A stretch of 64,000 nt of DNA. It comes from Escherichia phage vB_EcoM_Goslar. A program made the position numbers and the translations under genes. Below the pieces are notes generated by a model. The model saw nothing but the letters and a program-made list of their open reading frames with translations. It ran no database searches and was not told where the DNA came from. Each line of letters opens with the position of its first letter. The first letter of the stretch is position 1. Shown piece by piece: positions 3,222-63,980 of this stretch. Where the stretch lies: sequence record NC_048170.1; one strand, 5' to 3'.

Positions 3222-3234
3222 ACGGCATAAAAAA
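3222..3234 (-). promoter_or_regulatory. TTTTTTATGCCGT box following a UUCG-loop hairpin
   Basis: minus-strand hairpin ccgatctggc-TTCG-gctggatcgg then TTTTTTATGCCGTCC, about 70 nt upstream of ATG at 3160. Confidence 0.4.
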
Positions 3235-3458
3235 GAACCGATCCAGCCGAAGCCAGATCGGTTAAAAAGGATAATAACTGACAGAAAGATATCGATGATG
3301 TTCGTGAAACAAGATCTTCTCTCGTGTACAATGATGCTAGATCAGAGGGAGGTTGTAACACGAGAGGTGGTTCGCCAAAGAAGGAATAAAAACACGAACC
3401 TATCTTATTTCACTGATGGCACTAACCACTCAAAATATATAGTACTGTATGTAAAAGT

Positions 3459-3872
3459 TTACTGATTAATCAAGTCGTTAGCAACAATCTTGGTGTAACC
3501 TGCCTGATTAAGAATCTGATTAATTTTCGTTACGTCGGTCGCATCCTCAATAACGATGCTGGGTTTATAGATCAGCGTCTTGGTAACGACGATTGTACTC
3601 TCCTTAATCCAAGGAATCCCTAGAATCACATACTCGCCATCGGCTGTAATGACCTCGACGTAATTGTATTTCGTCGGATCGTTCGGTACACTAGACGGGA
3701 GCCGGGAATAAATCTGTTGGTGAATGGCGTCTACATCACGGCCGTTGCGCACAGCCGTACGATAGTTGTACACGGCGCTAATTTCTACTCCGTTGAAGTT
3801 AACCCCAAGTTCTGGGGCGTATACATCAAAACTCACAACAGAGCCAATCTTTTCTAAATCAGAAGCTGGCAT
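3459..3872 (-). CDS. hypothetical protein
   Basis: 137-aa ORF. Confidence 0.5.
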   Translation of the reverse strand: MPASDLEKIGSVVSFDVYAPELGVNFNGVEISAVYNYRTAVRNGRDVDAIHQQIYSRLPSSVPNDPTKYNYVEVITADGEYVILGIPWIKESTIVVTKTLIYKPSIVIEDATDVTKINQILNQAGYTKIVANDLINQ

Positions 3873-3883
3873 AATAGCATCCT

Positions 3884-4405
3884 TTATTTAAAAATGTATT
3901 CGTATCCGAAGGTCGTCGCCGACCAGACCCGGATAGATGATAGTGTTCCGCCACGATAAAACGTTTTTGTGAATTCCATATCCTGGGCAACACGATAATA
4001 AACACGTCCGATAATACGCACGATAAGGTTTCGTGATAACGATCTCTCCTCGCAGTATTCATCGATAAAGTCATCGTCGATATCCGATAAGACAACATCC
4101 GCAATTTCTTGCAGTAGGTTCCTCATCAGCATCTGCCTTCCTTCGGTACCCCACCCAGACAAACAGTAATCGTCTTCTGCCTGACTATAGATGTCGTTAA
4201 CCGCCTGTTCGAGCAGTTGCTCAAGATAGTAGTCATCGCGTTTTATAACGTGGCGACGGCGCTCAGTGGCGTATTTTTCCATCCTGTGTTTCTCTTGTTC
4301 GGCGTATGTATTAACGACGCCACAGTCTTTTCTGGATCGTCCCACAATGCACGACGAAAACTGGATACTACCATAACGGTAGGATAGATTTGTACAACCT
4401 CCCAT
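3884..4405 (-). CDS. hypothetical protein (start uncertain, likely internal ATG near 4282)
   Basis: ORF overlaps upstream ORF; acidic protein. Confidence 0.35.
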   Translation of the reverse strand: MGGCTNLSYRYGSIQFSSCIVGRSRKDCGVVNTYAEQEKHRMEKYATERRRHVIKRDDYYLEQLLEQAVNDIYSQAEDDYCLSGWGTEGRQMLMRNLLQEIADVVLSDIDDDFIDEYCEERSLSRNLIVRIIGRVYYRVAQDMEFTKTFYRGGTLSSIRVWSATTFGYEYIFK

Positions 4406-4731
4406 CCGTAACGATGTGCGTTAGTCGTACGTCCGACATTGAACAGACATAGCTGATTTAAGAAACAGAGCTGCATCTTCGTAAACAACACCATGTCTTC
4501 ACGTTTAACGTATCCGAGGATATACGCATTCTCGAACGCCTCGCGTGACAAGACGGGACGATTAAGATACCGCAACGACAGTACCAACAACGTTGTTATG
4601 CGCAACGGATCTTCTGGGTCATTCATGGTGCTCAGCTCTGCTTGTAACCAGTCAGGGATAGTAACCGTCAGACGATAGGTATCTGTTCCACGATCAACCA
4701 CATTCAATGTTGAAAAAGGCAACATATCCAT
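4243..4731 (-). CDS. hypothetical protein
   Basis: 162-aa ORF in chain of overlapping minus-strand ORFs. Confidence 0.35.
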   Translation of the reverse strand: MDMLPFSTLNVVDRGTDTYRLTVTIPDWLQAELSTMNDPEDPLRITTLLVLSLRYLNRPVLSREAFENAYILGYVKREDMVLFTKMQLCFLNQLCLFNVGRTTNAHRYGWEVVQIYPTVMVVSSFRRALWDDPEKTVASLIHTPNKRNTGWKNTPLSAVATL

Positions 4732-5269
4732 GAATTCCTTCTAGCTCGAGGTTGTTCTCGCCGGTCTTCGGTAATAACCCACTGGCCGTTAACATCTGCG
4801 TCATCGAGTAGTCAAAGCACGGAAATATCAGGTTAACGGTTTCCTGGATCGCGTCAACATAACTATAAATGGCTTCATAATACTCACCGTCATGATCTAC
4901 GCTAACCAGTTCCTGACACAGTTCTTCGCTTATCATTTCATATACCGGTGGATACCACGATTGAAATGGTCGCTGCATACGTAACGACCAATACTCGTAC
5001 GTCGTATACTGAAGCACGTCATAAGCCGATACGTTAATGCGGTCGAAGAAAGCATACTTGTCCATATGCTGATACAACATCGCCAGCACGGTTTCCAAGC
5101 ACACCGATATCCGCACGCCGTCATCTTTCCCGTTAAGAAAATTAGGTTTCTGCCGATAACGCACAAATGCCGACGGCTTTGATTGCATTATTCCACCACC
5201 AACCATAACGTCATACTCGTATCTAACGTAAAATTGAAATGCCACCAATCTTCTACACGTGGAATCCAC
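4694..5269 (-). CDS. hypothetical protein
   Basis: 191-aa ORF. Confidence 0.35.
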   Translation of the reverse strand: MDSTCRRLVAFQFYVRYEYDVMVGGGIMQSKPSAFVRYRQKPNFLNGKDDGVRISVCLETVLAMLYQHMDKYAFFDRINVSAYDVLQYTTYEYWSLRMQRPFQSWYPPVYEMISEELCQELVSVDHDGEYYEAIYSYVDAIQETVNLIFPCFDYSMTQMLTASGLLPKTGENNLELEGIHGYVAFFNIECG

Positions 5270-6845: not shown

Positions 6846-6936
6846 ACTCTTTTCCTAAGTCCCCATTGTTTATACACACGATATCTGGGAATAGTTAAAA
6901 TATACGGCGTAAAACGAAGCAGGAGAGTTTCTGACG

Positions 6937-7257
6937 TCATTTTCTCCCTCTTCGAATACCACCGATACCTCTTTCGTCTAAGACGTCCCAAGCACGCTTT
7001 ATTTCATCCTCCGTTGCTCTGGTATCTGGAGGGACAACCATAACACAGTCGTGGAATGGCCAATGTGTAGGTCTGGGGTTAGCGAACAAATCATCCCATT
7101 CAAATGTCCATTCTTTCTTTGAGCGATTGTAGTAGAGCGTAAGGTACGTGTTGGTATACGCCGGATAACCACGCATAACTTCAATATCCTTACGATCTTG
7201 CCGTTCCTGATTCCAATCGTTAAACCGCTTTCTTATTTTCTCCCACCACTTTCCCAT
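6937..7257 (-). CDS. hypothetical protein
   Basis: 106-aa ORF with RBS AGGAG. Confidence 0.5.
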   Translation of the reverse strand: MGKWWEKIRKRFNDWNQERQDRKDIEVMRGYPAYTNTYLTLYYNRSKKEWTFEWDDLFANPRPTHWPFHDCVMVVPPDTRATEDEIKRAWDVLDERGIGGIRRGRK

Positions 7258-7269
7258 GCTTTCTCCTAC

Positions 7270-7280
7270 ACGGCATAAAA
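7270..7280 (-). promoter_or_regulatory. TTTTATGCCGT box following a UUCG-loop hairpin
   Basis: minus strand: agcctgtcc-TTCG-gggcaggct then TTTTATGCCGTG, 12 nt before ATG at 7257. Confidence 0.45.
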
Positions 7281-7310
7281 GCCTGCCCCGAAGGACAGGC
7301 TCGATAGAAC

Positions 7311-7511: not shown

Positions 7512-7548
7512 AGCGCATCCCCATTCACTTGAACCTTTTGGTTCGGCA

Positions 7549-8529: not shown

Positions 8530-8593
8530 GTGAACTCCTAATTTAATATGTATTTAACGCACAATGAATCTTTCTTTGCTAAAGGGGTGACCC

Positions 8594-9436
8594 ATGGGTG
8601 CTATTGACTACAGTGTAGATCGTATCTGTCGTACAATACCGGCAGACATCCTACAGTATTGCTATATCGATCGCTACGACTGGCGTAATCGCTATCCTCG
8701 TTCCGTAGAAGACATCATTACCGATTGGGTAATCCGTAAACGGGTTATCGGCGACATCGATATCTACGGGGGACTACAAACCGTTATTCCCCTTGATGAT
8801 GCCGGTGTCACTATCGAAGAAGTCACCATCAACTGTTATGTTTTCCACATTCCGTTGGAAGCCACGCAGGGACGTTATATCACGTCTGCATTATCCATTA
8901 TCTCAGGGAGCGTGAACAACTACGGAATAAACTATAACGGGCAATGGGGCGCTTTCAACCAAACCCAATTTCAACGTCAGCTTTGTGGGTGGAACCCCGC
9001 AAGCAACACGTTACAGCAAGGGATGAACGCGTTCGGTCCCATGAACGTTCTTAGTACAGCCAACGTTGATATCATCGCACCTAACACCATCATGGTGAAC
9101 AACGTCACGCCGGTACAATTTCCCCTGAGCCTACGCTGTTTCCTTGCCCACGATCCGGAACTTACCAACCTCAGCATGGAGGTTTGGAACGACTTCTACA
9201 AACTCTGTTTATACGCCACACAAAGTGACATCTACAACAGAACCGTTATCCGTCTCGATAGAGGTGTTACAGCACAAGGACAAGAAGTCGGTGCATTCAA
9301 GGAATACATCGATCGCTTTGCCGATGCTGAAAACACATATCAGGAATTCCTGAACGAAACGTGGGCTGGCGTTGCTGCCTGGAACGATCCACAAACTAAA
9401 CGTCGCGCCATTCGACTACAAACCGGTTACTTCTGA
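8594..9436 (+). CDS. hypothetical protein
   Basis: 280-aa ORF. Confidence 0.55.
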   Translation: MGAIDYSVDRICRTIPADILQYCYIDRYDWRNRYPRSVEDIITDWVIRKRVIGDIDIYGGLQTVIPLDDAGVTIEEVTINCYVFHIPLEATQGRYITSALSIISGSVNNYGINYNGQWGAFNQTQFQRQLCGWNPASNTLQQGMNAFGPMNVLSTANVDIIAPNTIMVNNVTPVQFPLSLRCFLAHDPELTNLSMEVWNDFYKLCLYATQSDIYNRTVIRLDRGVTAQGQEVGAFKEYIDRFADAENTYQEFLNETWAGVAAWNDPQTKRRAIRLQTGYF

Positions 9437-9963
9437 TTAACGACAGCTTCCTCCCTCGGCGTTTTCGAGGGAGGTATTTGCCGTTTGAACACTTTCAGCA
9501 TGTTCGCAAAATCAGCAGCAATAATACAGGCCGAGCTTGATAGCTTATTGCTGAAAATGAGATCGTCCGGTAAACAATCGAACTGAATACCGTATTGCGT
9601 CTTTGTCTCATCAACGATCAATGATGGTGTCGATCTTGTCTTCGCGATGTCGGTGATATACAAACGTAAAAATAATTCACCGTCTTCGCTATCCATAAAA
9701 CGATAAGCGTTACCAGAAAACGCAGCATGCGGCGTAACGATAAATTGAACACGATCGTCGGTCGGATGGATATTTAACCAACGTTCGATATCATTACTAC
9801 TCACATTTCGCATATTTACTACGGTAAAAGCAAATAGCGTATCGTGATGTTTGGAATAATGCAGCACATACGCCGCATCTTTCTTTCCGTGAATCCCTTC
9901 AATGTATTCTATTGTCGTATAGCCGGATTTATATAGCTTTACTTGCGGTTTATCACTCATCAT
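9427..9963 (-). CDS. hypothetical protein (start at ATGATG overlapping upstream stop)
   Basis: ATGA-type overlap with stop of 9960..10259. Confidence 0.45.
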   Translation of the reverse strand: MMSDKPQVKLYKSGYTTIEYIEGIHGKKDAAYVLHYSKHHDTLFAFTVVNMRNVSSNDIERWLNIHPTDDRVQFIVTPHAAFSGNAYRFMDSEDGELFLRLYITDIAKTRSTPSLIVDETKTQYGIQFDCLPDDLIFSNKLSSSACIIAADFANMLKVFKRQIPPSKTPREEAVVNQK

Positions 9964-10259: not shown

Positions 10260-10271
10260 GGAAGATCCTCC

Positions 10272-12499: not shown

Positions 12500-12754
12500 G
12501 ATAGGAATCCTTAGTATGTTTGATATGTTGTTTAATTGACATATTAAGTTTAAAAGAGGTTATGTTTTACGTAATGTTAATAACGTATTCTTATCTCTAT
12601 TAAGTTATGTTCTATCTAAAGATAGTAAACAGATATAATGCTCCCCACCTCCCCATTCTCCCAAGTAATACTGGCCTACCGGCCCTCTCCTTTTTAAGGG
12701 AGAGAGTAAGCATTCAGTATTGCTCAAATGAATAAGCAAAACAGTATAAACTTA

Positions 12755-12778
12755 CCGTCTCGAGACAACTCGAGACGG
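12755..12778. terminator. perfect 10-bp hairpin ccgtctcgag-acaa-ctcgagacgg
   Basis: inverted repeat in 300-nt intergenic region, followed on minus strand by T-rich tract. Confidence 0.4.
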
Positions 12779-12807
12779 CGTAGTAGTATCTGTTTATCTC
12801 TTTTATG

Positions 12808-15643: not shown

Positions 15644-15796
15644 CAATGTAACGGTAAAACTTTACTGACGTTGGTTATTATTTGAAGCATAGGGCTTCAC
15701 CCAGGAGTACCATCCCTTTAAGTCGTTTGTCCTCTCCTGGTTAACTGTCGTTCTCTCACAGTGCTCGACAGACCAAAAATGCTCAGGCCTCATAGC

Positions 15797-15825
15797 CTCC
15801 TCTGGGAATGGAACCCAGAGGAGGA
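15797..15825. terminator. bidirectional terminator hairpin
   Basis: cctcctctggg-aatggaa-cccagaggagg between convergent genes. Confidence 0.5.
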
Positions 15826-15836
15826 CTATGTTTGCC

Positions 15837-16157
15837 TTAAAATTCAATGCGACCTTTTGTCGTAAACAATACACCTCTTTGCCAACAGAAAAGATCCTCC
15901 GATTGAGCGCAAACACGAATACCCGCATCGAATAGATGTTTTGTTCTAGCGCTTAAACAATCAGGATCTTCTACATACAACAGAAGACGTTGGCATTTAT
16001 TTTGAATGCGTTCGACAAGGATGTTCTTATCGCTTAAAATAAAATGCGCGTTATCTGTTAAGTTATCGTCGGTTTCCAGCTGCTTGACAAGTTTGATTAA
16101 AATACGTAATTGCTCAAGTGTGTCATGATCAAGTGAATCACCCATGGCGTACCTCAA
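15837..16157 (-). CDS. hypothetical protein (probable start MGDSLDHD a few codons inside the ORF)
   Basis: 106-aa ORF; RBS GAGGT before internal ATG. Confidence 0.45.
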   Translation of the reverse strand: MRYAMGDSLDHDTLEQLRILIKLVKQLETDDNLTDNAHFILSDKNILVERIQNKCQRLLLYVEDPDCLSARTKHLFDAGIRVCAQSEDLFCWQRGVLFTTKGRIEF

Positions 16158-16230
16158 CGTTATACGTCGTTTGTATTATAATACGCTATCGTCTCCCCGC
16201 CTGTATTAACGGGGAGTCTGCAAACTACTC

Positions 16231-22843: not shown

Positions 22844-23771
22844 GGCATGCCTCCAGGAGGTATTTCATGTTGGCTTGGAAATCATTGACATCACGCGCCA
22901 TACGACGCTGATCTGCCATGAGACGAGCCAACACGGTATCACGGTAACCACGATCGTGGTCAGCAGCAGAGCATAAAAGAATAAATGTTGGTGGGTGCTC
23001 TAAAGCAATCCCGGCAACTTCTTTACTATAACCCCCAACCCAACTGTAAGCGGTGATTTCAAACAACAACGCCTGGGTTAACGTGTTCAAACGGGGACTG
23101 ATATTACTTTCTTTTAACGCTGTTACAAAAGCTGCCATGTTAGGGATGTAACCCAGGTTTTCGGTTGCGATACCGATGCTCGCAAAATCGTAACGAAGCG
23201 TTGTCTGGATGGTGCGCACCATAGTTAGTCTTTCATTATTTGTAAGGCTATCTTTAAACAAGCAAAGATAATACCATGCTGTTATGATGGCAACATCACG
23301 ACGTTGTTGAAGGTCCAACCCTAAACGCTGTGTGATTTGTCCGCTAATCCAATCACAAAAGACACGCATCGGGATAGGGCCAAGACGTTCAAAAGGGCGT
23401 GTGCCCAAGGATTCCCATCCTACCTGAAGATACGCACGTGATTGAAGAAAGTTATATTCACGTTCGTTAACAACGGTAGTACGCGATCCTGGGCGTGAAG
23501 TGTCTGTTGGGGTGCGTGCGTAAGCGCGTTGGTCGATAACAACGCGCTGTCCGTCCATCACTGTTTTAATGACCAGCGGATGGCCGAAAGAAGGGATATC
23601 GTCCAACGTATTTTTGTTGCCGATGACTTCGAGAACGGGAGTGTTTACGCCACTTTCTTCACCGGGTGCACTTAACAATCCGCCGACGTAAGCAACTTCG
23701 ATAGCGGTTCGGATACGGTCAATGCCTTTTAGTTTTGTTCCAACAGTTGTGTCGTAAGGAGAGATGAACAT
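22824..23771 (-). CDS. hypothetical protein
   Basis: 315-aa ORF; RBS AAGGA. Confidence 0.5.
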   Translation of the reverse strand: MFISPYDTTVGTKLKGIDRIRTAIEVAYVGGLLSAPGEESGVNTPVLEVIGNKNTLDDIPSFGHPLVIKTVMDGQRVVIDQRAYARTPTDTSRPGSRTTVVNEREYNFLQSRAYLQVGWESLGTRPFERLGPIPMRVFCDWISGQITQRLGLDLQQRRDVAIITAWYYLCLFKDSLTNNERLTMVRTIQTTLRYDFASIGIATENLGYIPNMAAFVTALKESNISPRLNTLTQALLFEITAYSWVGGYSKEVAGIALEHPPTFILLCSAADHDRGYRDTVLARLMADQRRMARDVNDFQANMKYLLEACRGVERF

Positions 23772-23787
23772 ATGTAATTCCTTTATT

Positions 23788-23799
23788 ACGGCATATAAG
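23788..23799 (-). promoter_or_regulatory. TATATGCCGTAAT box (variant of TTTATGCCGT)
   Basis: 17 nt upstream of ATG at 23771. Confidence 0.35.
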
Positions 23800-23914
23800 A
23801 AAACGGGTTAAGCACACAGATTTACGCATAATTGTAATATTTTACGTTATGCCTATGACATTGTGTCACGTGTGCAATTATGTCATACAATTTCCTTAAA
23901 TTAAGGAGAGTTCC

Positions 23915-26893: not shown

Positions 26894-26918
26894 CGTAAAA
26901 AAAAAAAAGCATATTAAC

Positions 26919-26958
26919 CTCCCTTCCTTCCCTAGCCGTCAAGGCCGGGGAAGGAAGG
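26919..26958. terminator. bidirectional terminator hairpin
   Basis: ccttccttccc...gggaaggaagg; T-rich on plus side, T12 run on minus side (26897-26908). Confidence 0.55.
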
Positions 26959-26970
26959 TTTATGGTTTAT

Positions 26971-27923: not shown

Positions 27924-28026
27924 AGCGCTAACCCCAAAGGATAAAAATAAAACCTTGACATAACCACCACCGTAGCCCTGTATGGGGCTACGGTGGGGTC
28001 ATACAGAGAGACGTGTTAAGTTACAA

Positions 28027-29531: not shown

Positions 29532-29543
29532 ACGGCATAAAAA
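29532..29543 (-). promoter_or_regulatory. TTTTTATGCCGT box following hairpin
   Basis: minus strand: acctccttaccc-acat-gggtaaggaggt then ACTTTTTATGCCGTCA, about 90 nt upstream of ATG at 29442. Confidence 0.4.
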
Positions 29544-29725
29544 GTACCTCCTTACCCATGTGGGTAAGGAGGTTCGTCCATCACGACGAAAGGACGTTAT
29601 GTGACGCGGTGTCCATAACGGCCCTGGTAGCAGGCATTAAAGATAACAAAAAGGATGTAAGTTGAGCTAAACCACCTAAATACGGTAACGATTACTTCCG
29701 TACACAATATAACGCAACATCTTTT

Positions 29726-33869: not shown

Positions 33870-33890
33870 ACTGCGTTCAGCGAAATAAAC

Positions 33891-33916
33891 GAGCAGGGGC
33901 ATGAAGCCCCCTGCTC
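33891..33916. terminator. terminator hairpin after RNAP beta-like gene
   Basis: gagcaggggg-c-atgaa-g-ccccctgctc immediately after stop; T-rich on both sides. Confidence 0.55.
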
Positions 33917-36900
33917 TTATTTGGCGTCGTTAAAATAAATATCAACAGCTCGTTCCGTTGCGTAGAGGAGACCAAGATTCACAGTCCCAACCACTTCCGG
34001 TGAACCGATGATACGGTTAGCGATACTGGTGCCACTGAAGATAGCATCAAGGGTGTGCCCGTCTTCGGTTTTGTTCACACCATGACCCACGGAAGAGACA
34101 ACGGATTTCGCTTGTGCTGCGAAGGTACCTTTATCACCCATCCCCGCACCAAGGTCGTAACGCATGAAAATACGGATGGCGATCTGGTTCTCGCCTAACG
34201 GATTACCGTCTATTCTTACGTTACTGTTGTTGATACGCCCCGTTGTTGCTTCGTTGAGTTTCAGTTCCTTAACGCGTTTAGCTCGTGCTTTATCCGCATC
34301 GCCGACGAGCGCTGCCATGGTTTCACTCATATCCTCAATCTGAGCGCGGTACAATACATCGATCTGTACAACTTCACCATGAACGTCAGCACGTGGGTTA
34401 TACTGACTCATACGCCGTAATGCTTCAACGGCTTCCTGACTCTCATCACTCAGATCGGTCGCAATCGGTTCTTCCAGTGTTGCAAGGATCGTTCGTGGTT
34501 CAACATGATCGCCGATTTTCACGAGACCACGAATGTTGAGATGGGCGTCAACGATGAGTGTACGACTCTTAATCGATGGTGTTACGAGACGATCGGCAAG
34601 ATTGTCGAAGATATACGAACTGTCCTCGTGCGTCTCTGGAATATCCAGAATACCGACAAGAGACAGAACACCTGCGCGCCAAACAACCTGACCTGGGTTC
34701 CACCAATCGCGTTTAAAATAAAGACGATGGAAAACCACCACATCCTGATCCTTAACGCGATCCCCGACTTTATAATCGGTAATGAGATCGTGAGGATAAT
34801 ACTTACCTGGTCCTTTCCCGATTATCGTGCCGAGTTGGAAAACCTCTTCTCCTAACTCTGGATCGTCGTATTGTATCGTAAGCGCAGTTTTGGTGACCTT
34901 CTTAACAACACCATCGCCTTGGGCAGCTGCTGCGAAGAGTTTACCAACACGATGCGCGATGACTGTCTCGCCACCCGTACGCCATGGTTGTACATCGTAA
35001 CCTTCAGCAGCAATCATGCGGTTGTGTTGGATTCCGACAAAAACCAGACGTTTTCCATCGTCACGGTCTACAGCCGGAACAGCTAACGCCGACGTACTCA
35101 TTACCGATGAGATACCATCTGTCTTTTCATCGAATGGTCGTGTTTCACCATACACCGACACGATATTAGCATTAGGTGCAAGGTAAGCAGAGATACCCAC
35201 ATCCCCACTATCTTTCGTACCCTCTGACACAATACCAACATCAGACTTGTCGTATTCACGATCGCGTGCGCGTCGAAGCGATGTCTTTGAACGACCTCCG
35301 ATACCGGTCATCGTTGCTTCTTCACCTTGCTTGATATCCAGCATTGGGTTGGTTTCATCAATGACGATAGAAGCACTGTCGTCAAGGATTTGGTTCCAAA
35401 CGCTCACCGGACTGATTGAGATCTTCTGTCGGTTGCCTTGGCTGCTGTTCTCATTCTGACGAATAGCGCCAACCAGGTCCTTATACACCAATTCAGCGAA
35501 CTTATCGTACGTTTTAAAACGTTGGTAGTTCACATCGTTCGTGTTAGGTGCCCAATCATCCAGAAGCAGTTCAACAGCACGCAGTAGCAACATGGCGAAA
35601 TCAGTAGGTTCTCCCATGTTCTGTAATAGCGTACGGCTTACCGGATCAACGAAAAGACGCTCCATGAGTTCAAGTTCGCGTAAATGGCGAACCTTAAGTC
35701 CAGCACCATCGACAACGTTAAAATAGATATCACGATTGTCAAAAGCGCCGCGAGCGTAACCGATGTAGTTACGGTACTCGTTAAACCCACCCAGCAACAA
35801 CGTCGTCATGCGATCGTCTTTACTGAAAATCAAACTTTCATCGTCAAAGCTCACCGCGAATTCATCTGCTGCTAACCCCATACGAGAACCACGAGGTACC
35901 GTACGATAGTTTGCTTTAAGATGTTCTAATAACGGGGTAAGTCCGCCCAGATAACTTAGAACAACGCCAACCGGAATACGTACACCCATGAATTCAAGAT
36001 CGGCGGCTTCGATCGGCATCTTAGCCGCATTGATACCGAAGAAATCAGGGAACGTCCCTACAGGTGTTGGTGTTTGTCCTGACTGACAGATATAGAGCTG
36101 ATTGCGTTCATCGATCGCTAGGAACTCACCCGATGTGTTACGTGCGAACGTCAGGAGTCCTTCGGCTAACTGTTCGTTGAACCGATCTTCCCCAATGAAC
36201 TCCGGCAATGTTTTTATATCGAGACGTATATCCCAATCAGCAAATTGGATTTGGGTATAGTTGCGTGCAAGCACAGCGAAGTAATACGGGACTTTGACAG
36301 CCGGATCAAAGACGTTACCACGTTTTAACGTTGTTAAGGGTGAGGACTTATCGTAATACATCGCCGTAAGTTGACGTGTTAGCCAACGACCGGCGTTATT
36401 AACGACGCGCTCTGAACGTTTAACAAACACCTTACCGTAGGCGGTACTTAATGCAACTTCGGATGATGATACCTTTCTAATAGGTTTATCAACACGTTGT
36501 TTACGCATCCGGTACTTGATGCCGTTAACAACATAAATGCCATCCTTACGAACCTTCGGCAACATCACCGGGAACGTGGTTGGGACACCGCCTACAGGGG
36601 CCAGTTTAATCGTGATGACTTGATAATCCCCCATCACGTCAACAACATCTTCGACTTTATATCCCGTAACAGGGTAACCTGCTTGCTGTACCGCAACAAC
36701 GGCAGCTGCGATGTCCTTTTGCATTACATGCTCAACGTAATGTTTATCCCACACCGCAAGCGTCGATTTACATAGGCTCTTATCGACGATAACATCCGCT
36801 TCCGGCATAACCTTTGCGGGAGCTAATTTTGCGGCTTTTGGTTTAACTTCAACATACTCGGCAAGCGTGAGTCCAGAACCGTCGGGCGCTTCGATTTCAT

Positions 36901-40440: not shown

Positions 40441-40490
40441 TTTAAAAGTTAAATTTGCCAGAAAACTGGCATTTTGTTAGCCTTTCCTTG

Positions 40491-41957: not shown

Positions 41958-42202
41958 GGAGACACTCCTCTTTACCACCACCGGCTGCGGCGGTATCATC
42001 TGAACACACGAGAGACGTAATGGGTGATGGCGTCACCCATCGCTTCCTTGCTTGAGGCGAGGAAGTTATTAGGTTACGTACCTGCGTGATAAAATCAAGC
42101 AGGCGATGTGTGAAGTTACGCTTCAACATTATCAATGCCGAAGGTAAACTTCGTGCATCACGTTCCAACGTAACATGGGAACGTATCGAACTGGAGGTAT
42201 AC

Positions 42203-48917: not shown

Positions 48918-51059
48918 ATGGGTATTCTTGTTCAAAACGCCCTAATTACCAAACAAGCGTTTTTATTACCAGGCGATAGCAGCACGCTTAGTGCCGACAT
49001 GATTAAAGCGAGACATACACCGTATTCCTACGATAACGTCGATGATACCACCTTAGGTGGGAACTGGGTGCTTAACCCACCGCCGCAATATACCAAATTT
49101 GCCGACATCAAAGAACGCCGACGTGCGGTTATGCCGGGATCAACGGGCATGGGTCGAGGCTATAGTGAAAGCATTAACAGCTTTAAAGAGGTCGTTACGT
49201 TACGATTCGGTAAACCTCGCTTTACAGGCGCAAGTATCTTCTTTACTGATTTCTACGATGCGGATGTTGCCGTAACGGTTAAAACCGGTCGCGATCCCGG
49301 TATCCTTTATTACGCAGCCAAAGCGTATACCACCGTTCTTTCTTACCTCACACCTCTACCCTACTTGTATATGGTTGGACGTATTGGTCGATATTTCCTG
49401 GGTAAGCCTACCAGTCAATATTACTATCAAGTACCAACCATGCATGTGTATTGGGCGTCTTTCCAGACGCTGGTAAACCAAACAGCGATAAACATGGGTC
49501 TTATCGCCGGTGCCGGTAAAGATAAAGGCTACGTGGAAGAAGGAGGTACCGTACTCCATCAATATTCAATCGGTGGTCAGAACGTTGAAGAATTCATCAA
49601 CTACGCGTCTAAGACGCTACCTGGGATTTATAAGAAAGGTGGTGGGATCGATATCTACCAGATTGCAACACGTCGTCAGCGTATACAGAACGCATGGGTA
49701 CGTCGTATTCAATCCATGATGGAAAACGATTACTCGTCTTACGAAGAATTCTGGAACGATCTTGATAAACGACTTGATAGCGGAGCGTTTCCATCGGATG
49801 TAACCGGCCGTACGCTAACGCAGTATCTCGCCGACACACAGAAGTCTGCTGTTTACAGCGCGACAGCTGGTGATAATAAACAAACGATGGACGACCTTTT
49901 ATTCGGAAGGGCCTCGTACACCAATAAAGATGCTGACGCCAACTTCAATGTCTCAGCGGCTACCTCCGACGGAGGTACGTCAACACAGAGTCAGGGTACA
50001 ACAGCCAATGTCGGTAATTCAACGTCAGGGACAACACAGGCTTCAACAGCAGCATCAACAGCTGGAGGCGCGAACGTACAGAGCAAAGGAATCGGGCAAA
50101 CGAACGCAGCCGAAGAAGCTACGTTTCTTGATCTGATGGATGCTGAATTGGCCGACGGTGCTCAGTTCATCAGTTTTCGAGTCGATTCTGTCACCAGTGT
50201 AACCGAAACGTTTTCAAACAGCGCTTCAGAAAGTTCTATCGCGCAGACGATGAACAGTCGTGCGCAAGCGAACATCGAACGTCGTTTCACCCTCTCCGGT
50301 GGTAATACCGGTTGGGCTGTACTGGACGAAGCCATCAAAGCCGGTTCCGACCTCGTCAATGGTGCTATTTCCGGGATGGGTCTGGATGGTATTTTTGGTG
50401 CCTTCATGGGTTCCGGCTTCGCTGACATTCCGAAATTCTATTCTGGTTCATCGGTAAGTCTTCCGCGTGCAGATCTGACGATGGAATTACGTTCCTGGAG
50501 TGGGGATCGCTGGTCGATCTTTACGAACCTCATGGTACCTCTTTTAGCGATCCTTGCAGGCGGTTTGCCTCAGGCTACCGGTAAATCGTCCTACGGGATG
50601 CCGTTCATGTGTGAGTGTTATATTCCCGGTAAAGTCCAGATTAAAATGGGCCTTATCGACAACATCACTGTGACGCGTCATGTTGGAAACGTGCCGTCAA
50701 CACGTGAGCGGTTACCGTTAGGCATCGATGTCAGCTTCAGTGTTTATGATCTGTCGTCCATCGTCGCAATGCCGATCACAACGACAGCCGCATCGATCGC
50801 AAAATTAGATCCTCGTGGCTTCTTAAGTGATCTTCTTGCTGACGATACTCCACTCAACAACTATCTTGCTGTGTTATCGGCATTGACGCTTACGGAACAA
50901 GTTTACATGATTCCGGATTTAAGTCGTCGCATGCATAAAACCATGGCTGATATCGATAGTTTCTGGAGCAAAGGTAATTTTGCTAGCTGGTTGTCTGACA
51001 CCATGCCTGGCAGGATAGCATCAGGGCTGTTATGGAAACGTACAGAACGACCGTTCTGA
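48918..51059 (+). CDS. putative virion structural protein
   Basis: 713-aa ORF with Ser/Thr/Gly-rich central region. Confidence 0.5.
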   Translation: MGILVQNALITKQAFLLPGDSSTLSADMIKARHTPYSYDNVDDTTLGGNWVLNPPPQYTKFADIKERRRAVMPGSTGMGRGYSESINSFKEVVTLRFGKPRFTGASIFFTDFYDADVAVTVKTGRDPGILYYAAKAYTTVLSYLTPLPYLYMVGRIGRYFLGKPTSQYYYQVPTMHVYWASFQTLVNQTAINMGLIAGAGKDKGYVEEGGTVLHQYSIGGQNVEEFINYASKTLPGIYKKGGGIDIYQIATRRQRIQNAWVRRIQSMMENDYSSYEEFWNDLDKRLDSGAFPSDVTGRTLTQYLADTQKSAVYSATAGDNKQTMDDLLFGRASYTNKDADANFNVSAATSDGGTSTQSQGTTANVGNSTSGTTQASTAASTAGGANVQSKGIGQTNAAEEATFLDLMDAELADGAQFISFRVDSVTSVTETFSNSASESSIAQTMNSRAQANIERRFTLSGGNTGWAVLDEAIKAGSDLVNGAISGMGLDGIFGAFMGSGFADIPKFYSGSSVSLPRADLTMELRSWSGDRWSIFTNLMVPLLAILAGGLPQATGKSSYGMPFMCECYIPGKVQIKMGLIDNITVTRHVGNVPSTRERLPLGIDVSFSVYDLSSIVAMPITTTAASIAKLDPRGFLSDLLADDTPLNNYLAVLSALTLTEQVYMIPDLSRRMHKTMADIDSFWSKGNFASWLSDTMPGRIASGLLWKRTERPF

Positions 51060-51076
51060 TATTCACTGCATAAACC

Positions 51077-51108
51077 CCCTCTCCCAACCCGTGAGGGAAG
51101 GGAGAGGG
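51077..51108. terminator. bidirectional terminator hairpin with GTGA tetraloop
   Basis: ccctctccc-aa-ccc GTGA ggg-aa-gggagaggg between convergent genes. Confidence 0.5.
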
Positions 51109-51114
51109 AATATG

Positions 51115-52182
51115 TTAACCTAACGTTACCGTCGGTAAATCAGGATAAAGTTTCTTCAAGCCTGCCATCGTGGTGGTAGTTGTATAATTCTTACCCATTA
51201 CGGCGAGAGATGCGTATTTCCTACTGCGGGAGAAAAGAGAATAGAACCCACTGGATGTTTCCATCCACATCGTGAGGAGTTCTGCATCGTTACCGTGATA
51301 GTTCGTTTTACCCCATCCAGGTTTAAACGCATCAGCAAAATCAATTAAACGCGAGGCTTCAGCGTCGTATTCTTTAAGGGTAATGTACGATGGAATGCGG
51401 TAGTTACGAAACAGTAACGTAATGAGTTCAGGGACAACGCTACGGGCACGTTCAGCCGTGATAAGTTCGGTGATCACAGCAGCTGTACGGAAATCGCCGT
51501 TAAGACCAACGCTGCTTAACGATTCCGCTAAAGTGGTCGCCATCGCCACTTTATCCTCCGCTGACCCAGAGTCATACAGACTACGCACATCGATGTAGTT
51601 GCCTGCTAATGCGGCTTGACGAATCAACGATGTGACAACTGTCCGGTTCGTCTTATAGTCGTTGTAGCTGAATTCGGTTCGCGTTTTCCCTTGATCGTCG
51701 AGATACCGATCGACAATCGTCGACAGTTTATAATACTCATCGCCCGACATCAGACTATCGAGAAGCTTAACGTTTCCATCTTTATCAATAAGCTTCCCTA
51801 ACGCGCCATTGGATTGCTGGTTAATGGTGCTGTAAATCTGGTCTTTTACTTGCGATAGGATGTTATCGGTTGACGATATATTCAGGCCAGTAACATCTTT
51901 GATCTTATTCATCAACGCATTTTCATTCAGGGAGATTTTGCCTCCGCTGATATCGATGAAAGAATTAAGATCGCTTATGGAAATCAGGTTTCCTGTTAAC
52001 GCCGATAATGTACTATTGATACTGTTCGTAATACTGCTGCGAAAACTGGTTAACGCATCCGCCGCTGAAACAGCGGTACCGCTAACCGCTTTAAGGAGCG
52101 TATCACGCCCTGTCGAAAAGTCACTGGTGATGGTTTTGATCTTGGACGTATCTATACTCGGCAGTTTGTCGTAAAGACTCAT
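51115..52182 (-). CDS. hypothetical protein (start MSLYDKLP)
   Basis: RBS GGAGG before ATG at 52182; ORF-track start is further upstream. Confidence 0.5.
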   Translation of the reverse strand: MSLYDKLPSIDTSKIKTITSDFSTGRDTLLKAVSGTAVSAADALTSFRSSITNSINSTLSALTGNLISISDLNSFIDISGGKISLNENALMNKIKDVTGLNISSTDNILSQVKDQIYSTINQQSNGALGKLIDKDGNVKLLDSLMSGDEYYKLSTIVDRYLDDQGKTRTEFSYNDYKTNRTVVTSLIRQAALAGNYIDVRSLYDSGSAEDKVAMATTLAESLSSVGLNGDFRTAAVITELITAERARSVVPELITLLFRNYRIPSYITLKEYDAEASRLIDFADAFKPGWGKTNYHGNDAELLTMWMETSSGFYSLFSRSRKYASLAVMGKNYTTTTTMAGLKKLYPDLPTVTLG

Positions 52183-52210: not shown

Positions 52211-52220
52211 TACGGCATAA
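52211..52220 (-). promoter_or_regulatory. TTTATGCCGT box following hairpin
   Basis: minus strand agcctacccac-cattgt-gtgggtaggct then TTTATGCCGTAT, 29 nt upstream of ATG at 52182. Confidence 0.45.
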
Positions 52221-52264
52221 AGCCTACCCACACAATGGTGGGTAGGCTAAGATCAACATCGATG

Positions 52265-52777
52265 TTAAACTTCTTCGTTTTCTGAACCTAACGATTCAGC
52301 ATCTGGATCGTCAACAGGAATTGTTGCATCAAAATACCGTTTCGTATGCGTGGTTGTATATCCTACGCTATCTGTGATGGAAATCGTAAACGTGACTTCC
52401 CTTGCACGGATTAAGCGTAGTTTATTCATGAAGTTACGGAACGGCATCGATCCCCGATTCAACTCCTTAATGACGTTTCCTCGAATACTGGAAATGTCTT
52501 TATTCGTTTTATCAGGATGTCGTTTCTTCACATCACGCATATGTCGGGTAATATACGAATTGAGCTGATTTGCGCCGATCCCTCTCTCCGTATAAATCTG
52601 CAACAGGAACTCCGTAAGGAAATCCTGTCTACCCGTAGGCGTCCAGAAATTGTTACCGTGATGGTAGTTAGTCGCTCGTCCTCGATTGCTTTGAGGATTT
52701 TCATCATCGCTTTCATCACGACGCTTAAGCGGATTAATGCGTGCGCGGAAAGAGACTTCATTATATTTATTTGTCAT
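52265..52777 (-). CDS. hypothetical basic protein (start MTNKYNEV)
   Basis: ATGA overlap with stop of 52774..53289. Confidence 0.45.
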   Translation of the reverse strand: MTNKYNEVSFRARINPLKRRDESDDENPQSNRGRATNYHHGNNFWTPTGRQDFLTEFLLQIYTERGIGANQLNSYITRHMRDVKKRHPDKTNKDISSIRGNVIKELNRGSMPFRNFMNKLRLIRAREVTFTISITDSVGYTTTHTKRYFDATIPVDDPDAESLGSENEEV

Positions 52778-53289
52778 AATACACCAGTGTACTGACTGAG
52801 TGCGAAGGTTAGGAGTTCGCAACAGTCTCTCGCTAGTTTCCTTGTTTTGCGTAATCCATAAGCCGCATCCAAATCGTCCCGTTCCGCCAGCGCGTCTAAC
52901 CACGTCGCAAGTATGCGTCCATACTCGATAACGTCGCGCATGAGAACGTCGAACTGGATAACACGACCATCGGCATCAGCAAGCCAACGATTGAATGTGA
53001 TTTGTGGTGCTAGTATTGCATATGTTCTCTCCTCTAATGCGATTATGTTTATGTTGCCTTCGTTATCGAACGCTTGATGCCAACGGCGAAGGTCAAGCAT
53101 CAACGACTCAGCGTCCATATACCACAACGGTAAATACGTTTTACGTGCAACGCGTATATCGTAGATGTTGTGAACCCAGGACGTTGTTTTGTAAAGCAAC
53201 AAGAGTTCGTTTAACCGTTGCCTATCATCTTGAAACGTCTTCCTTTTATAACGCTGGAACGCACGCCTCAAGAAAAAGCGATGTAACAT
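52774..53289 (-). CDS. hypothetical protein
   Basis: 171-aa ORF. Confidence 0.5.
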   Translation of the reverse strand: MLHRFFLRRAFQRYKRKTFQDDRQRLNELLLLYKTTSWVHNIYDIRVARKTYLPLWYMDAESLMLDLRRWHQAFDNEGNINIIALEERTYAILAPQITFNRWLADADGRVIQFDVLMRDVIEYGRILATWLDALAERDDLDAAYGLRKTRKLARDCCELLTFALSQYTGVL

Positions 53290-55447: not shown

Positions 55448-55449
55448 AA

Positions 55450-58450: not shown

Positions 58451-59293
58451 ATGCATAAATTTACCATTCCTGAAGACCCGATTACACTGCAGACCCTTTG
58501 GGATTCACATCGTGCTTTATCAATGGAAGGCTTTGCGCAAGACTTCGCTTCACTTACCGCAGTAACGAACCTTCGTAGTATGTTTACTAACGGTAAGAAG
58601 TTCGTTACCGATTGGCTTAAGAAACGTGATGTGACGGTTTATCCTAAAGTCTTCGATGACCTCGATACCATCTTTAGCAACAACGCTTACAGCGATCTCA
58701 TTGGGTATCGCGCTTTTATTCCGAATGGTTTAAATGCGCCGATGTCAGATTATGTTGTCGCTTTAACCCAGAGTCTGGATAGCGTAATTGGCACCATCCT
58801 ACCCGATTTGGATAAGTTGACCGTAACGTGCGCTAAAGCCGTCAACGACGTTAACTTCCGTCGTAGTAGTGGTATGGCTCAAACACTACCTAAAAACGAT
58901 CCAGAGAACGTTCTAGAGACGTTACGTGCGATGTTCAAACAAGGGACGGTAACACAGACCACTGTAGGCCGTGCATATAAGAACGAAGATGATATTCGTC
59001 AGATCGGAAAAGATCTGGATGCTTCCCGTATCCGTGCGCTTGACGTTAATCCTAAAGACGTGAAGAAGGCAATCGAACGTTTCATGGAGGTAGCTGACCG
59101 TTTAACCGAAATCCTGGTTCAAGACTACAACGAAGGTGCGGTGAGTAACGCAATGATTCGCGATATTAGCGACGCTATCTACCAAACAGCCAAACAGGCT
59201 GAGCTGTATGCGTTTCTCGTGAACGCTTTGGCTGAGGCGATCATCGCATATAACGACACTTGGGACGCTGTTAAAAAGAACGCGAAAAAATAA
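58451..59293 (+). CDS. hypothetical protein
   Basis: 280-aa ORF. Confidence 0.5.
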   Translation: MHKFTIPEDPITLQTLWDSHRALSMEGFAQDFASLTAVTNLRSMFTNGKKFVTDWLKKRDVTVYPKVFDDLDTIFSNNAYSDLIGYRAFIPNGLNAPMSDYVVALTQSLDSVIGTILPDLDKLTVTCAKAVNDVNFRRSSGMAQTLPKNDPENVLETLRAMFKQGTVTQTTVGRAYKNEDDIRQIGKDLDASRIRALDVNPKDVKKAIERFMEVADRLTEILVQDYNEGAVSNAMIRDISDAIYQTAKQAELYAFLVNALAEAIIAYNDTWDAVKKNAKK

Positions 59294-59301
59294 CATAATA
59301 A

Positions 59302-59337
59302 CCCACCCTACTACCCCGTTAAGGGCGGTAGGGTGGG
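59302..59337. terminator. bidirectional terminator hairpin
   Basis: cccaccctac...gtagggtggg between convergent genes, followed by TTTATTTGCCGTAT. Confidence 0.5.
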
Positions 59338-59344
59338 ATAAGGT

Positions 59345-59776
59345 TTATTTGCCGTATAGTTGTACCACTCGTTGTGTCGTAGGAACGCAGACTCTTACCA
59401 GAAGCTTCTTAATCTCCTGACGAATCGTTGCTTTATCATCATAATAAAGCCATGGCGGAACGCGTTGCATTATGCACTGCACGGCTTCATCGTAGTTCGT
59501 CGTCTCATTAAGTAACGTCTCACTATCCAGATCTTTCCATGCAGTAATACCAAGTCGCGCAGCAAACATCAACGCTGAAACCGACTCAGCTATCTCCAAT
59601 CGCTCATTCATATCCGCAAGACCTTTTAGCATGATGTAATTATCATCATGCTGATGTAAGGTGCCATACAAACTTCCGAAGAGAAGTATACGTTTAGCTT
59701 TTGCGGTTAAGAGGAACGACAGGAGAGCGTGTTTCAACGGTTGTTTCTCACGTTCTACCTGTTCGACCATCACCAT
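59345..59776 (-). CDS. hypothetical protein
   Basis: 143-aa ORF. Confidence 0.5.
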   Translation of the reverse strand: MVMVEQVEREKQPLKHALLSFLLTAKAKRILLFGSLYGTLHQHDDNYIMLKGLADMNERLEIAESVSALMFAARLGITAWKDLDSETLLNETTNYDEAVQCIMQRVPPWLYYDDKATIRQEIKKLLVRVCVPTTQRVVQLYGK

Positions 59777-59779
59777 TGA

Positions 59780-61318: not shown

Positions 61319-61356
61319 TAATCATTGTCCGTATGATAGCCCAAAGTTGTACGGTA

Positions 61357-61908: not shown

Positions 61909-61962
61909 GCGTGTGTCCTTGATAGTATGAAATTTCCAATACAACTTAACCGAGGACGTCGA

Positions 61963-63303
61963 ATGATTAGTATTTTTGGTTTTTATACGTACAAAGGGTA
62001 CGCTAATAACCACCCAAAAACCACGGCGAAATTCGGTGAGTTCAGTCAGCACAGTGCTACGTTCAGTCGCGAAATCGGCATCTATACCAACACGGCGTAC
62101 GCACGTACGACCTTATTAGTGTTGAATGCCGAAAACGAAGCTGGTGAAGCACAAACGCTGAATGACGACACCGCAGGCCGCATTCTTCAGGTTGGTCAAT
62201 GGTTGCTGGAAAAAGCCGCATCGGGCGAAATCCAGGAAGACCGAGACCAAGTTATCGATTACCTAAAAGACGACTTCACAACGTATCTGGATTCTATCGA
62301 CATCCCAACACCCACCACCGATGGCACAGTCTATCTACCAGCGTGGATCAGTTTCAAGATAACGGCCACCGGCGATGTTGTCAAGATTTGGTTGTCTGAT
62401 AGCGTATTCCAAAGTCAATATCCAAAATACGAATATGAAGTCGTTCCCCCTGTTCCTAAGGATCAGTTAGATACCTTCTTCGAAGATCTGGCAACATTGA
62501 AGAAACTGGTTGACAGTCGAAGCAGCGAGAAACTGACCGAAGAAATCAACGAGGTGCGCGACCAATTCCCAGACACACAATTGTGGACGAAAACCTATAA
62601 AGCGTACGATTACACCGACGATTCGAAATACATTAATACCGATTGGACGGTGATTATCTACGGTGCAGCAGGTAACAACATTGATAATATCAAGGAGTTC
62701 CTGCAAAACTGGATTCTTAGCAATAGCACGCACGGACGTCCAGACTGGGAAATCGTTCTGCCGGATCTTTTTATTCCGACGGAACACATCTTCATCCCGA
62801 TCTGGAACCGCCACAGTGCTCCAGAAATGACCAATCAGGCACGTATTTATAGTCCTATCTTCGATGATTCGTTGATGGATACCTACCTGAAAAACTTTGC
62901 TGATGGTTACGGCGAAACCGCCGAAGTCCGTAAGTCGCTTCAAGCGGTGCCGACGTTGTGGCGCTCGATCGGTTTCTTAAGTGTCGGTAACTCACGTAAC
63001 CGAGACGGTAAACTTAAGTTCTACGATCGTTGGCCACAATACGCGCTCATCAGCACAACCAGCATCGACATTAACCGTATCGACGATGCGACACGTGAAT
63101 TCATCACGTTCACTTACGAAATGCTGAAACTGGCAGAATCGCTCACCGAAGACGACCCGGTACCGTTGGGTTATAGTCGTGTTACGCGTGGTAGCAATAG
63201 CTTCTTAGCGAAAAGCCACAACGATGTTCAGTATCTCTTCTTAACAAAAGAAGCGTTCCTGAAGAAAATGCCGGATGAAGCCGACACGCCTGTTGGAGGT
63301 TGA
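61963..63303 (+). CDS. hypothetical protein
   Basis: start MISIFGFY with RBS GAGGA. Confidence 0.5.
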   Translation: MISIFGFYTYKGYANNHPKTTAKFGEFSQHSATFSREIGIYTNTAYARTTLLVLNAENEAGEAQTLNDDTAGRILQVGQWLLEKAASGEIQEDRDQVIDYLKDDFTTYLDSIDIPTPTTDGTVYLPAWISFKITATGDVVKIWLSDSVFQSQYPKYEYEVVPPVPKDQLDTFFEDLATLKKLVDSRSSEKLTEEINEVRDQFPDTQLWTKTYKAYDYTDDSKYINTDWTVIIYGAAGNNIDNIKEFLQNWILSNSTHGRPDWEIVLPDLFIPTEHIFIPIWNRHSAPEMTNQARIYSPIFDDSLMDTYLKNFADGYGETAEVRKSLQAVPTLWRSIGFLSVGNSRNRDGKLKFYDRWPQYALISTTSIDINRIDDATREFITFTYEMLKLAESLTEDDPVPLGYSRVTRGSNSFLAKSHNDVQYLFLTKEAFLKKMPDEADTPVGG

Positions 63304-63305
63304 TT

Positions 63306-63932
63306 ATGGCTGTAACACGCATGACGCCAAGTCCCGGTGCGGTCGGGGTATTCACAGTATCAGCGCCGTTTTCCGTTGGTACGTCAACGCTATATACCGT
63401 TACAGCGTTACGCCGATTCAGCGAAGTCATCGGTAGTGGAATCGATCTATTTACGGAACTGTACGAACCGTTATCAATAGACAAATCCACTTTCGAAGCG
63501 CATCTCGAAGCGAATGCTTATCTCGTCACGTTGCAACCGGATTATGGTGCGCCCGTACTGGTACCCGATACGTATATCACGTCGTACCCAAAGAACGATT
63601 CCTTGCGGTATCGTCGCATTATTCTGGGTATCGATTTCGGGCCTCTTCCTCCCGGTCTTGACCTTTCGTATTTAACAACGATATTGAAAGGTAAGGCTAG
63701 TGATATTCTTGGTGTCGAACCTGAAGTTAAAACGATGGAAATCACTCTCGATGATACCGTTACTCAGGAACAACATCAGATAAACGAAGCCCGTCGTCAG
63801 GCTGCGATAAAAGAACGAGATACCATTTACGCACGCTGTGAAACGCAAGAGAAGCAGATAACGGCTTTACTTGCAACCCAAAAGCAACTTATCAAATTGC
63901 TTCAAGACGCCGGTATCAATCCGACACCTTAA
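63306..63932 (+). CDS. hypothetical protein
   Basis: start MAVTRMTP with RBS GGAGG, 2 nt after upstream stop. Confidence 0.5.
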   Translation: MAVTRMTPSPGAVGVFTVSAPFSVGTSTLYTVTALRRFSEVIGSGIDLFTELYEPLSIDKSTFEAHLEANAYLVTLQPDYGAPVLVPDTYITSYPKNDSLRYRRIILGIDFGPLPPGLDLSYLTTILKGKASDILGVEPEVKTMEITLDDTVTQEQHQINEARRQAAIKERDTIYARCETQEKQITALLATQKQLIKLLQDAGINPTP

Positions 63933-63938
63933 CATATT

Positions 63939-63980
63939 CCCTCCTCCTTCCCTGATGGGTTGGAGGAGGGTTATGCCGTC
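63939..63980 (+). promoter_or_regulatory. hairpin followed by TTATGCCGTC box
   Basis: ccctcctcc-ttccc-tgat-gggtt-ggaggaggg then TTATGCCGTCAAGC then A16. Confidence 0.4.

Follow-up and report, generated by a model that had tools for sequence, protein, structure and literature searches.

The 64,000-nucleotide stretch of Escherichia phage vB_EcoM_Goslar considered here (NC_048170.1; hereafter, the window) carries in its intergenic gaps a recurrent module, in which a GC-rich hairpin is directly followed by a short tail centered on TATG and, in most copies, CCGT. Judged from its genes, the window belongs to a distant phiKZ-like (Chimalliviridae) jumbo phage. In protein comparison, its tail sheath protein is ~33% identical to the sheaths of Erwinia, Xanthomonas, and Pseudomonas jumbo phages, and RNA polymerase (RNAP) β-like subunits, terminase, and DNA polymerase are also encoded. 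The multisubunit RNAP genes are split, with β-like genes at 33917-38263 and 40449-41999, and the gene order agrees with phiKZ gp25-30 plus gp178-182 and with Erwinia phage Ea35-70. A megablast search of 10 kb of the window against GenBank phages gave no match; two IMG/VR contigs, of 183 and 237 kb, share 94-98% identity with the window, and near-identical strain segments, designated L001, L002, L009, and L010 (the L009 contig being 98% identical), were compared with it. In our opinion, the module is with high probability the characteristic factor-independent terminator of phiKZ-like jumbo phages; the hairpin with TTTATGCCGT is probably not a promoter.

The sequence TTTATGCCGT occurs in four exact copies, all on the minus strand (3222-3231, 7270-7279, 29532-29541, and 52212-52221), against 0.21 expected by shuffling; four copies were reached in 0 of 100 shuffles. 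An earlier note, made from the letters of this DNA, had listed a fifth copy on the plus strand at 63971-63980, which in fact reads GTTATGCCGT, and had placed the last of the minus-strand copies, itself real, at 52220-52211 instead of 52221-52212. The core TATGCCGT is present seven times, compared with 2.25 expected. Six of these copies are intergenic, in a window with ~7% intergenic DNA, and five lie directly 3' of a strong GC hairpin. The copy at 33674(-) is probably due to chance, since it is located within an open reading frame (ORF) and lacks a hairpin. It should be noted that the enrichment in the window is limited to the hairpin-linked TATGCCGT form; the degenerate TATKYYGT, counted across the whole window, is not enriched (30 vs 22 expected).

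The GC-rich hairpins described in the earlier note are present at the four TTTATGCCGT sites and at 63972(+), and two of them, at 3236-3263 and 7279-7302, have the UUCG loops that it had pointed out. RNA folds of the five TATGCCGT-linked hairpins have energies between -18 and -29 kcal/mol and z-scores between -2.4 and -6.2 relative to shuffles. On the minus strand, a 12-bp stem with a UUCG loop (3236..3263; -18.3 kcal/mol, z -4.5) separates gene 3459-3872 from the DNA polymerase gene 1007-3160, which lies downstream of the hairpin; the hairpin tail, CTTTTTTATGCCGT (3222..3235), has a T-run of 6 here and of 5 in relatives, and L001 has TATGCTGT. The fold GAGCCTGTCC-UUCG-GGGCAGGCTT (7279..7302, minus) is followed by TTATGCCGT at 7270..7278, 13 nt ahead of the start codon of gene 6937-7257. 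The hairpin ACCTCCTTACCC-ACAU-GGGTAAGGAGGT (29546..29573, minus; -28.6 kcal/mol, z -6.2), 3' of the head maturation protease gene 29726-30535, has the tail ACTTTTTATGCCGT (29532..29545), and an 11-bp hairpin fold at 52221..52248 (minus), downstream of gene 52265-52903, continues into TTATGCCGT (52212..52220), upstream of gene 51115-52182. The plus-strand member, CCCTCCTCC-TTCCC-loop-GGG-TTGGAGGAGGG (63939..63970; -29.3 kcal/mol, z -5.7), follows gene 63300-63932; its stem is kept and its loop is different in each of three strains. Its tail (63971..63979) is TTATGCCGT in the window and TTATGCCGC in L010, and the next gene is convergent, which makes this a pure terminator context.

About ten further terminator hairpins with TATG or ..GCCGT tails, absent from the earlier note, are present. 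An RNAfold scan of all intergenic gaps in the window yielded imperfect bidirectional hairpins at 948-1000, 26916-26967, 51068-51115, and 59299-59340. Putative bidirectional terminators thus placed, with the plus-strand tail given first, are those between gene 5-940(+) and the DNA polymerase gene 1007-3160(-) (948..1000; ..GTTATGTTATTC and ..GATTATGCACCGG), between the tail-tube gene 26003-26893(+) and gene 26971-27510(-) (26916..26967; TTTATGGTTT and TTAATATGCTTTTTTTTTTTT), between genes 48918-51059(+) and 51115-52182(-) (51068..51115; AATATGTTAACC and GGTTTATGCAGTG), and between genes 58451-59293(+) and 59345-59776(-) (59299..59358; ATAAGGTTTATTTGCCGT and TTATTATGTTATTTTTT; -27 to -28 kcal/mol); another separates convergent genes at 15785..15837 (ACTATGTTTGCC and CTATGAGGCC; z -7.3 and -4.9). 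Hairpins occupy the convergent gaps 948-1000, 15785-15837, 26916-26967, 51068-51115, 59299-59340, and 63939-63979. A plus-strand hairpin after gene 8594-9436, also in a convergent context, consists of CCTCCCTCG..CGAGGGAGG with the tail TATTTGCCGT (9450..9484). Here and in the gap at 59299 the hairpin is followed by a variant tail, (T)TTATTTGCCGT (9475-9484 and 59347-59358, both plus strand), in which GCCGT is retained and TATTTG stands in place of TATG. Further minus-strand members comprise a tandem hairpin at 27956..28005 (tail TGGTTATGTCAAGG; -35 kcal/mol, z -6.7), a hairpin at 12741..12793 (tail AAGTTTATACTGTTTTGC), the loop of which is inverted in L001, and one directly 3' of the virion-RNAP β-like gene (33880..33925), whose tail GTTTATTTCGCTG has T at the K position, like phiKZ TTATTTCGT. 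The variant TTTTACGCCGT (6903..6913, minus), present as the earlier note had it, follows a weak long-loop hairpin at 6909-6959 (-15.7 kcal/mol) and is kept in L001 and L002.

All hairpin copies lie after a co-oriented gene. Their 5' arms are pyrimidine-rich and their 3' arms purine-rich (ACCTCCTTACCC/GGGTAAGGAGGT, CCCTCCTCC/GGAGGAGGG, CCTCCCTCG/CGAGGGAGG, CCTCCTCTGGG/CCCAGAGGAGG, and others), the loops are of 4-7 nt, two of them UUCG, and the fold z ranges from -2.4 to -7.3. TTAT-K-YY-GT directly follows the stem: TTATGCCGT is found after five hairpins, in a looser form with 5-6 T at two sites, and elsewhere the tail takes the forms TTATGCTGT and TTATGCCGC in relatives and TTTATTTCG at 33891. 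Canonical intrinsic terminators combine a GC hairpin with a U-rich segment and release the transcript a few nucleotides past the stem. The uninterrupted U-tract of ~7-8 nt that marks a canonical Rho-independent terminator is absent from the module; the T-run reaches 5-6 only at the 3236 and 29546 hairpins, and the others have 2-4 T, followed by ATGCCGT.

The conserved ATGCCGT had been regarded in the earlier note as out of place in a terminator. The opposite is the case in phiKZ, where 61 terminators mapped by Oxford Nanopore (ONT)-cappable-seq share the consensus 5'-BCCYCCCCHWWDGGGRRGGBYTTATKYYGT-3' (E = 1.7e-212; Putzeys et al. 2024, microLife; PMC10914365), which itself ends in TTATKYYGT. 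TTATGCCGT conforms to TTATKYYGT, and the window hairpins share the C-rich/G-rich composition of the arms; the assignment of hairpin and U-tract to a terminator, also made in that note, is supported. The phiKZ genome contains 60 exact TTATKYYGT sites, 30 of which are directly 3' of a GC hairpin. The main terminator motif of 201phi2-1, motif A (n = 59), resembles the phiKZ consensus, and members of the 201phi2-1 set, placed in reporter constructs, block transcription in vivo in uninfected cells (PMC11512511). The module in the window has the anatomy and placement of a phiKZ terminator, and its transcript folds into a hairpin. Modules of this kind have thus already been described in phiKZ and 201phi2-1, and the one reported here is a CCGT-flavored member in a distant relative.

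A combined terminator and promoter, suggested in the earlier note, is the alternative that deserves most attention. The background on which it drew is borne out by the literature: phiKZ late promoters are TATG motifs with +1 at the G, required by the non-virion RNAP (nvRNAP) (Yakunina 2015, PMC4666361), and a structure places the non-template TATG under the β-lobe of gp123 (PMC12809450). According to this alternative, the hairpin would stop upstream transcripts and nvRNAP would restart at the TATG, with CCGT as the initially transcribed sequence. Sequence downstream of phiKZ late promoters does matter, four hairpin copies in the window precede co-oriented genes at 13-94 nt from the start codon, three of them with no second TATG in that interval, TATGCCGT and TTATGCCTATG occur without hairpins in a divergent promoter gap (see below), and two phiKZ promoters, P049 and P075, initiate from a TATG just 5-12 nt past a terminator hairpin. 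Mapped phiKZ transcript ends nevertheless argue against it. Transcription start sites (TSSs) and termination sites were taken from tables S3/S4 of bioRxiv 10.1101/2023.10.13.562163; 149 TSS coordinates fit the assembled genome, and 43 of the 66 “late” TSSs fall on the G of TATG. Of the 88 TATGs adjacent to a phiKZ hairpin, not one has any of the 149 TSSs within ±3 nt; the closest, at +6, belongs to the second TATG of TTATGCTATG. Phage phiKZ tandem terminators typically have a separate TSS 21-58 nt downstream. Conversely, among the termination sites T034-T118, on which the 3'-end figures are based, a mapped 3' end is located within ±3 nt of the G at 24 of these TATGs (median +1); for five bidirectional hairpins, this is the case on both strands. 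The hairpin-adjacent TATG is, in phiKZ, where RNA ends and not where it starts.

Gene orientation bears on the same question. In phiKZ, the TATG-type tail is found at 29 of 40 convergent and at 22 of 78 tandem terminators in functional orientation (p = 5e-6), which is the opposite of what would be expected if the tail were the promoter of the next gene. The class of the driving promoter, early vs middle/late, does not predict the G-type tail in phiKZ (p = 0.2). Among all terminator-like hairpins of the window phage, TATG follows 10 of 12 convergent and 6 of 10 tandem strand-instances. The statement of the earlier note that the module lies upstream of at least five genes holds for the hairpin copies at 3222, 7270, 29532, and 52212 and for the hairpin-less copy at 23788, each of which has a co-oriented gene downstream. 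It fails at 63972, where the next gene, as seen in the L009 contig, is convergent, on the minus strand; in L009, an A16 run and a second hairpin come between this copy and the opposite-strand gene. A further hairpin with TATGCCGT, at L009:16204 outside the window, is likewise convergent: it abuts a minus-strand gene, for thymidylate kinase, at its 3' end. The window and near-identical contigs are alike in that the tail is enriched in convergent gaps, with no co-oriented gene after it, and a role of the tail in serving the downstream gene is not supported. Moreover, GCCGT follows TATTT, with no TATG to start from, at 9475 and 59347, both in convergent gaps, and YYGT is missing after TATG both in P119L, a validated promoter, and in the promoters of the divergent sheath gap in five related phages. 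For these reasons, a combined terminator and promoter is, in our estimate, improbable as a general account of the module.

Processing of the RNA at the module by an endonuclease, which the earlier note had also considered, or initiation of a small ORF at the ATG of the tail is the least credible alternative. ONT 3' ends alone cannot separate termination from processing, and in L009 an ORF of 87 aa begins at a module ATG. However, the 201phi2-1 terminators of the same type stop transcription in the reporter constructs already mentioned, and no Rfam family matched at the module sites. As for translation, the ATG is not preceded by a Shine-Dalgarno sequence, because the hairpin fills that space, and the frames either stop after ~11 codons or overlap a longer ORF on the opposite strand; the start-codon interpretation was rejected on these grounds.

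The association of hairpin and tail extends across the family. It was scored per hairpin strand-instance as a TATG beginning 0-7 nt past a GC hairpin and compared with the background rate. TATG follows 88 of 257 hairpin strand-instances in phiKZ (background 0.038), 9 of 46 in Ea35-70 (0.020), 20 of 113 in LucasX (0.019), 7 of 119 in DT01 (0.008), 10 of 37 in 201phi2-1 (0.026), and 7 of 46 in the window (0.022). The enrichment is thus ~7-9x in phiKZ, Ea35-70, LucasX, DT01, and 201phi2-1, and the hairpin-adjacent TATG mostly continues as YYGT or CCGN. The convergent gap after the tail-tube gene illustrates this at an orthologous position, where a hairpin is followed by TTTATGCCGG in Ea35-70, TTATGCCGC in LucasX, and TATGCCGTC in DT01. 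In AR9, which has related RNAPs and a different late promoter, TATG follows none of 23 hairpins, and in T4, in which terminators have plain T-runs, the hairpin-TATG association is weak. That the tail is common to several genera, comprising Erwinia, Xanthomonas, and Pseudomonas phages, and absent from AR9 is an addition of this survey, as are the convergent-gap enrichment and the coincidence of the phiKZ tail with 3' ends and never with mapped starts.

The breadth of this conservation is also relevant to a simpler alternative, namely, that TATG(YYGT) is merely the 3' half of an extended stem, pairs with an upstream CATAA, much as A-tracts and U-tracts pair in bidirectional terminators, and has no sequence-specific meaning. 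The flanks of bidirectional phiKZ hairpins are indeed mutually complementary (ACRRCATAA-hairpin-TTATGYYGT), and the window folds 15785-15837, 27956-28005, and 63933-63975 reach into CAUA/UAUG. The unidirectional copies at 3236, 7279, 29546, and 52221, however, have no complementary upstream sequence, and pairing alone would not require the letters TATG-YYGT to be conserved across genomes of 37-57% GC. Stem extension accounts for bidirectional copies only, and we consider it very unlikely as an explanation of the tail.

A different picture is presented by the gap at 23772-23914, from which the gp28 homologue and the sheath gene diverge, and here TATG probably plays its other role. The gap contains six TATGs, of which half are directed at gp28 (TATGCCGT, TATGCGTA, and TATGACAT) and half at the sheath gene (TTATGCCTATG, in which two overlap, and TATGTCAT). 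The two variants listed for this gap in the earlier note are present: a hairpin-less TATGCCGT on the minus strand (23788..23795; fold z = +1.2), 17 nt ahead of the start codon of gene 22824-23771, and TTATGCCTATG on the plus strand (23847..23857), upstream of the sheath gene. Two of the six TATGs have the TATGCC form without any hairpin. The six are likely late promoters. Nothing needs termination in a divergent gap; the copy at 23788 is not a terminator, and both it and the site at 23847 are most readily taken as candidate late promoters. With about a dozen intergenic TATGs, the CCGT at 23788 may be a matter of chance. TTATGCCTATG at 23847 may be compared with P049 of phiKZ, for which the second of the TATGs in TTATGCTATG is the start.

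If the module is a terminator, as we favor, its action may be envisaged as follows. A GC hairpin with a pyrimidine-rich and a purine-rich arm is followed by a short U-rich stretch up to UAU and then by the conserved G-YY-GT (CCGT in the window phage), and the whole would end transcription units, in many cases on both strands where genes converge. Because mapped phiKZ 3' ends are at or next to the G, TATG-YYGT would be positioned at or just beyond the release point and would presumably act via DNA or the polymerase active-site region and not via the released RNA. Downstream DNA is known to affect termination, and the elemental pause consensus is G-10 Y-1 G+1, a 3' pyrimidine with an incoming G being a general pause signature of multisubunit RNAPs. 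G-YYGT may, in this sense, be a positional pause/release signal that compensates for the short U-tract. Downstream genes in tandem would be reached by read-through or served by separate promoters a few tens of bases further on.

Several observations weigh against the terminator assignment or its details. The function is transferred by analogy from phiKZ and 201phi2-1, with sheath proteins only ~32-33% identical. Hairpin-to-TATG spacing in the window, 1-8 nt, is looser than in phiKZ, and two sites have 5-6 T. Hairpins with TATGCCGT are mostly tandem in the window (4 of 5), and hairpin-less TATGCCGT and TTATGCCTATG occur in the divergent promoter gap. The module TATG is the sole one between the hairpin and the start codon of genes 6937-7257 and 51115-52182; for this reason, a dual role might apply at some tandem sites. 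ONT 3' ends carry an uncertainty of a few nucleotides and possible exonuclease trimming, which makes the exact release point, and whether YYGT is transcribed, uncertain; release might even occur after the full nine-base tail, i.e., one RNA:DNA hybrid length. Finally, the pause/release role of G-YYGT is one that we infer.

A bolder proposal, which we offer as speculative and rather unlikely, is that the TATG-YYGT tail signals termination specifically to the multisubunit RNAPs of the phage itself, with one pocket marking both transcript starts and ends. The promoter-recognition pocket of the phage RNAP would capture the non-template TATG during elongation. If true, a shared pocket would explain how terminators nearly devoid of a U-tract can function in the phage nucleus, and why conservation of the tail extends from Pseudomonas phages to the window phage, with no such tail in AR9, whose nvRNAP reads a different promoter. 

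The same tail letters across 37-57% GC, the RNA end at the G of a promoter-like TATG, and the missing tail in AR9 point to a polymerase-specific termination code in nucleus-forming phages. For annotation, the modules mark the ends of transcription units in a 237-kb jumbo phage and should not be annotated as promoters. Such terminators are also useful as synthetic-biology parts.

Strain variation stays within the consensus: TATGCCGT changes to TATGCTGT or TATGCCGC (CCGT to CTGT; three strains), and the T-run length differs by one between three strains. Stems are kept among the three strains, loops change, and hairpin tops change or invert. At 12754-12779, the hairpin top is swapped for its reverse complement in L001 (loop TTGT vs ACAA), and the same kind of swap distinguishes L009 16204 from L010 16199 (TTCCCttacGGGTT vs AACCCgtaaGGGAA); these swaps are palindrome inversions that preserve structure. 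The exact 7279..7302 hairpin, GAGCCTGTCCTTCGGGGCAGGC, occurs twice in the genome, the second copy, outside the window, having the tail TTTT(T)ATGCTGT, and the CCTCCC-TTCCC-loop-GGG-TTGGGAGG type occurs at least four times. Hairpin sequence families comprise the sites 7279-7302, 948-1000, 51068-51115, 63939-63970, and L009 ~16170-16200, which suggests that whole terminator cassettes were duplicated. The A16 run at the window end (63985-64000) is genuine (L009 12059-12120); its minus-strand counterpart, a T16 tract, follows the second hairpin, GGCTCTCC..GGAGAGCC, which ends the convergent gene. The gap after 63972 therefore has two terminator styles back to back, a phiKZ-type tail and, on the other strand, a long T-run. 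Between the virion-RNAP β-like genes 33917-38263 and 40449-41999 lies a group I intron (38510-38938, minus; Rfam RF00028, 67.7 bits, full-length match), abutted by an HNH homing-endonuclease ORF (38931-40403, minus).

Compared with known systems, the module is closest to the phiKZ terminator, with which it shares a hairpin of C-rich 5' and G-rich 3' arms, a 4-nt loop, often UUCG, and the subsequent TTAT-G-YY-GT, as well as an intergenic location 3' of stop codons and, between convergent genes, frequent bidirectionality; strain variants of the window phage hit the degenerate Y positions. It differs in that YY is nearly always CC (GC 47% vs 37% in phiKZ), the stems are of greater length and sequence diversity, ATG is preceded by anywhere from 1 to 6 T, and the TATTTGCCGT form is present. 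The architecture of hairpin plus TTATG.. is likewise that of 201phi2-1 motif A; in 50 kb of that genome, the tails after GC hairpins are TTTATGTCGT, CTTATGCCGT, ATATGCTGT, and similar, and composite motifs (A/B) that lengthen the stem are reported there (PMC11512511). With the phiKZ late promoter, the module has in common the letters TATG and an RNA end at the G, which is a 5' end at promoters and a 3' end at terminators; unlike the terminator tail, in which the K position can be T, promoters have neither an upstream hairpin nor a conserved YYGT. The GC hairpin, the U-rich segment, and release a few nucleotides after the stem are as in canonical intrinsic terminators. In the module, however, the U-tract is very short (UUAU) and gives way to a conserved non-U sequence, whereas canonical terminators and those of AR9 and T4, which served as a control scan, have long T-runs without conserved downstream letters.

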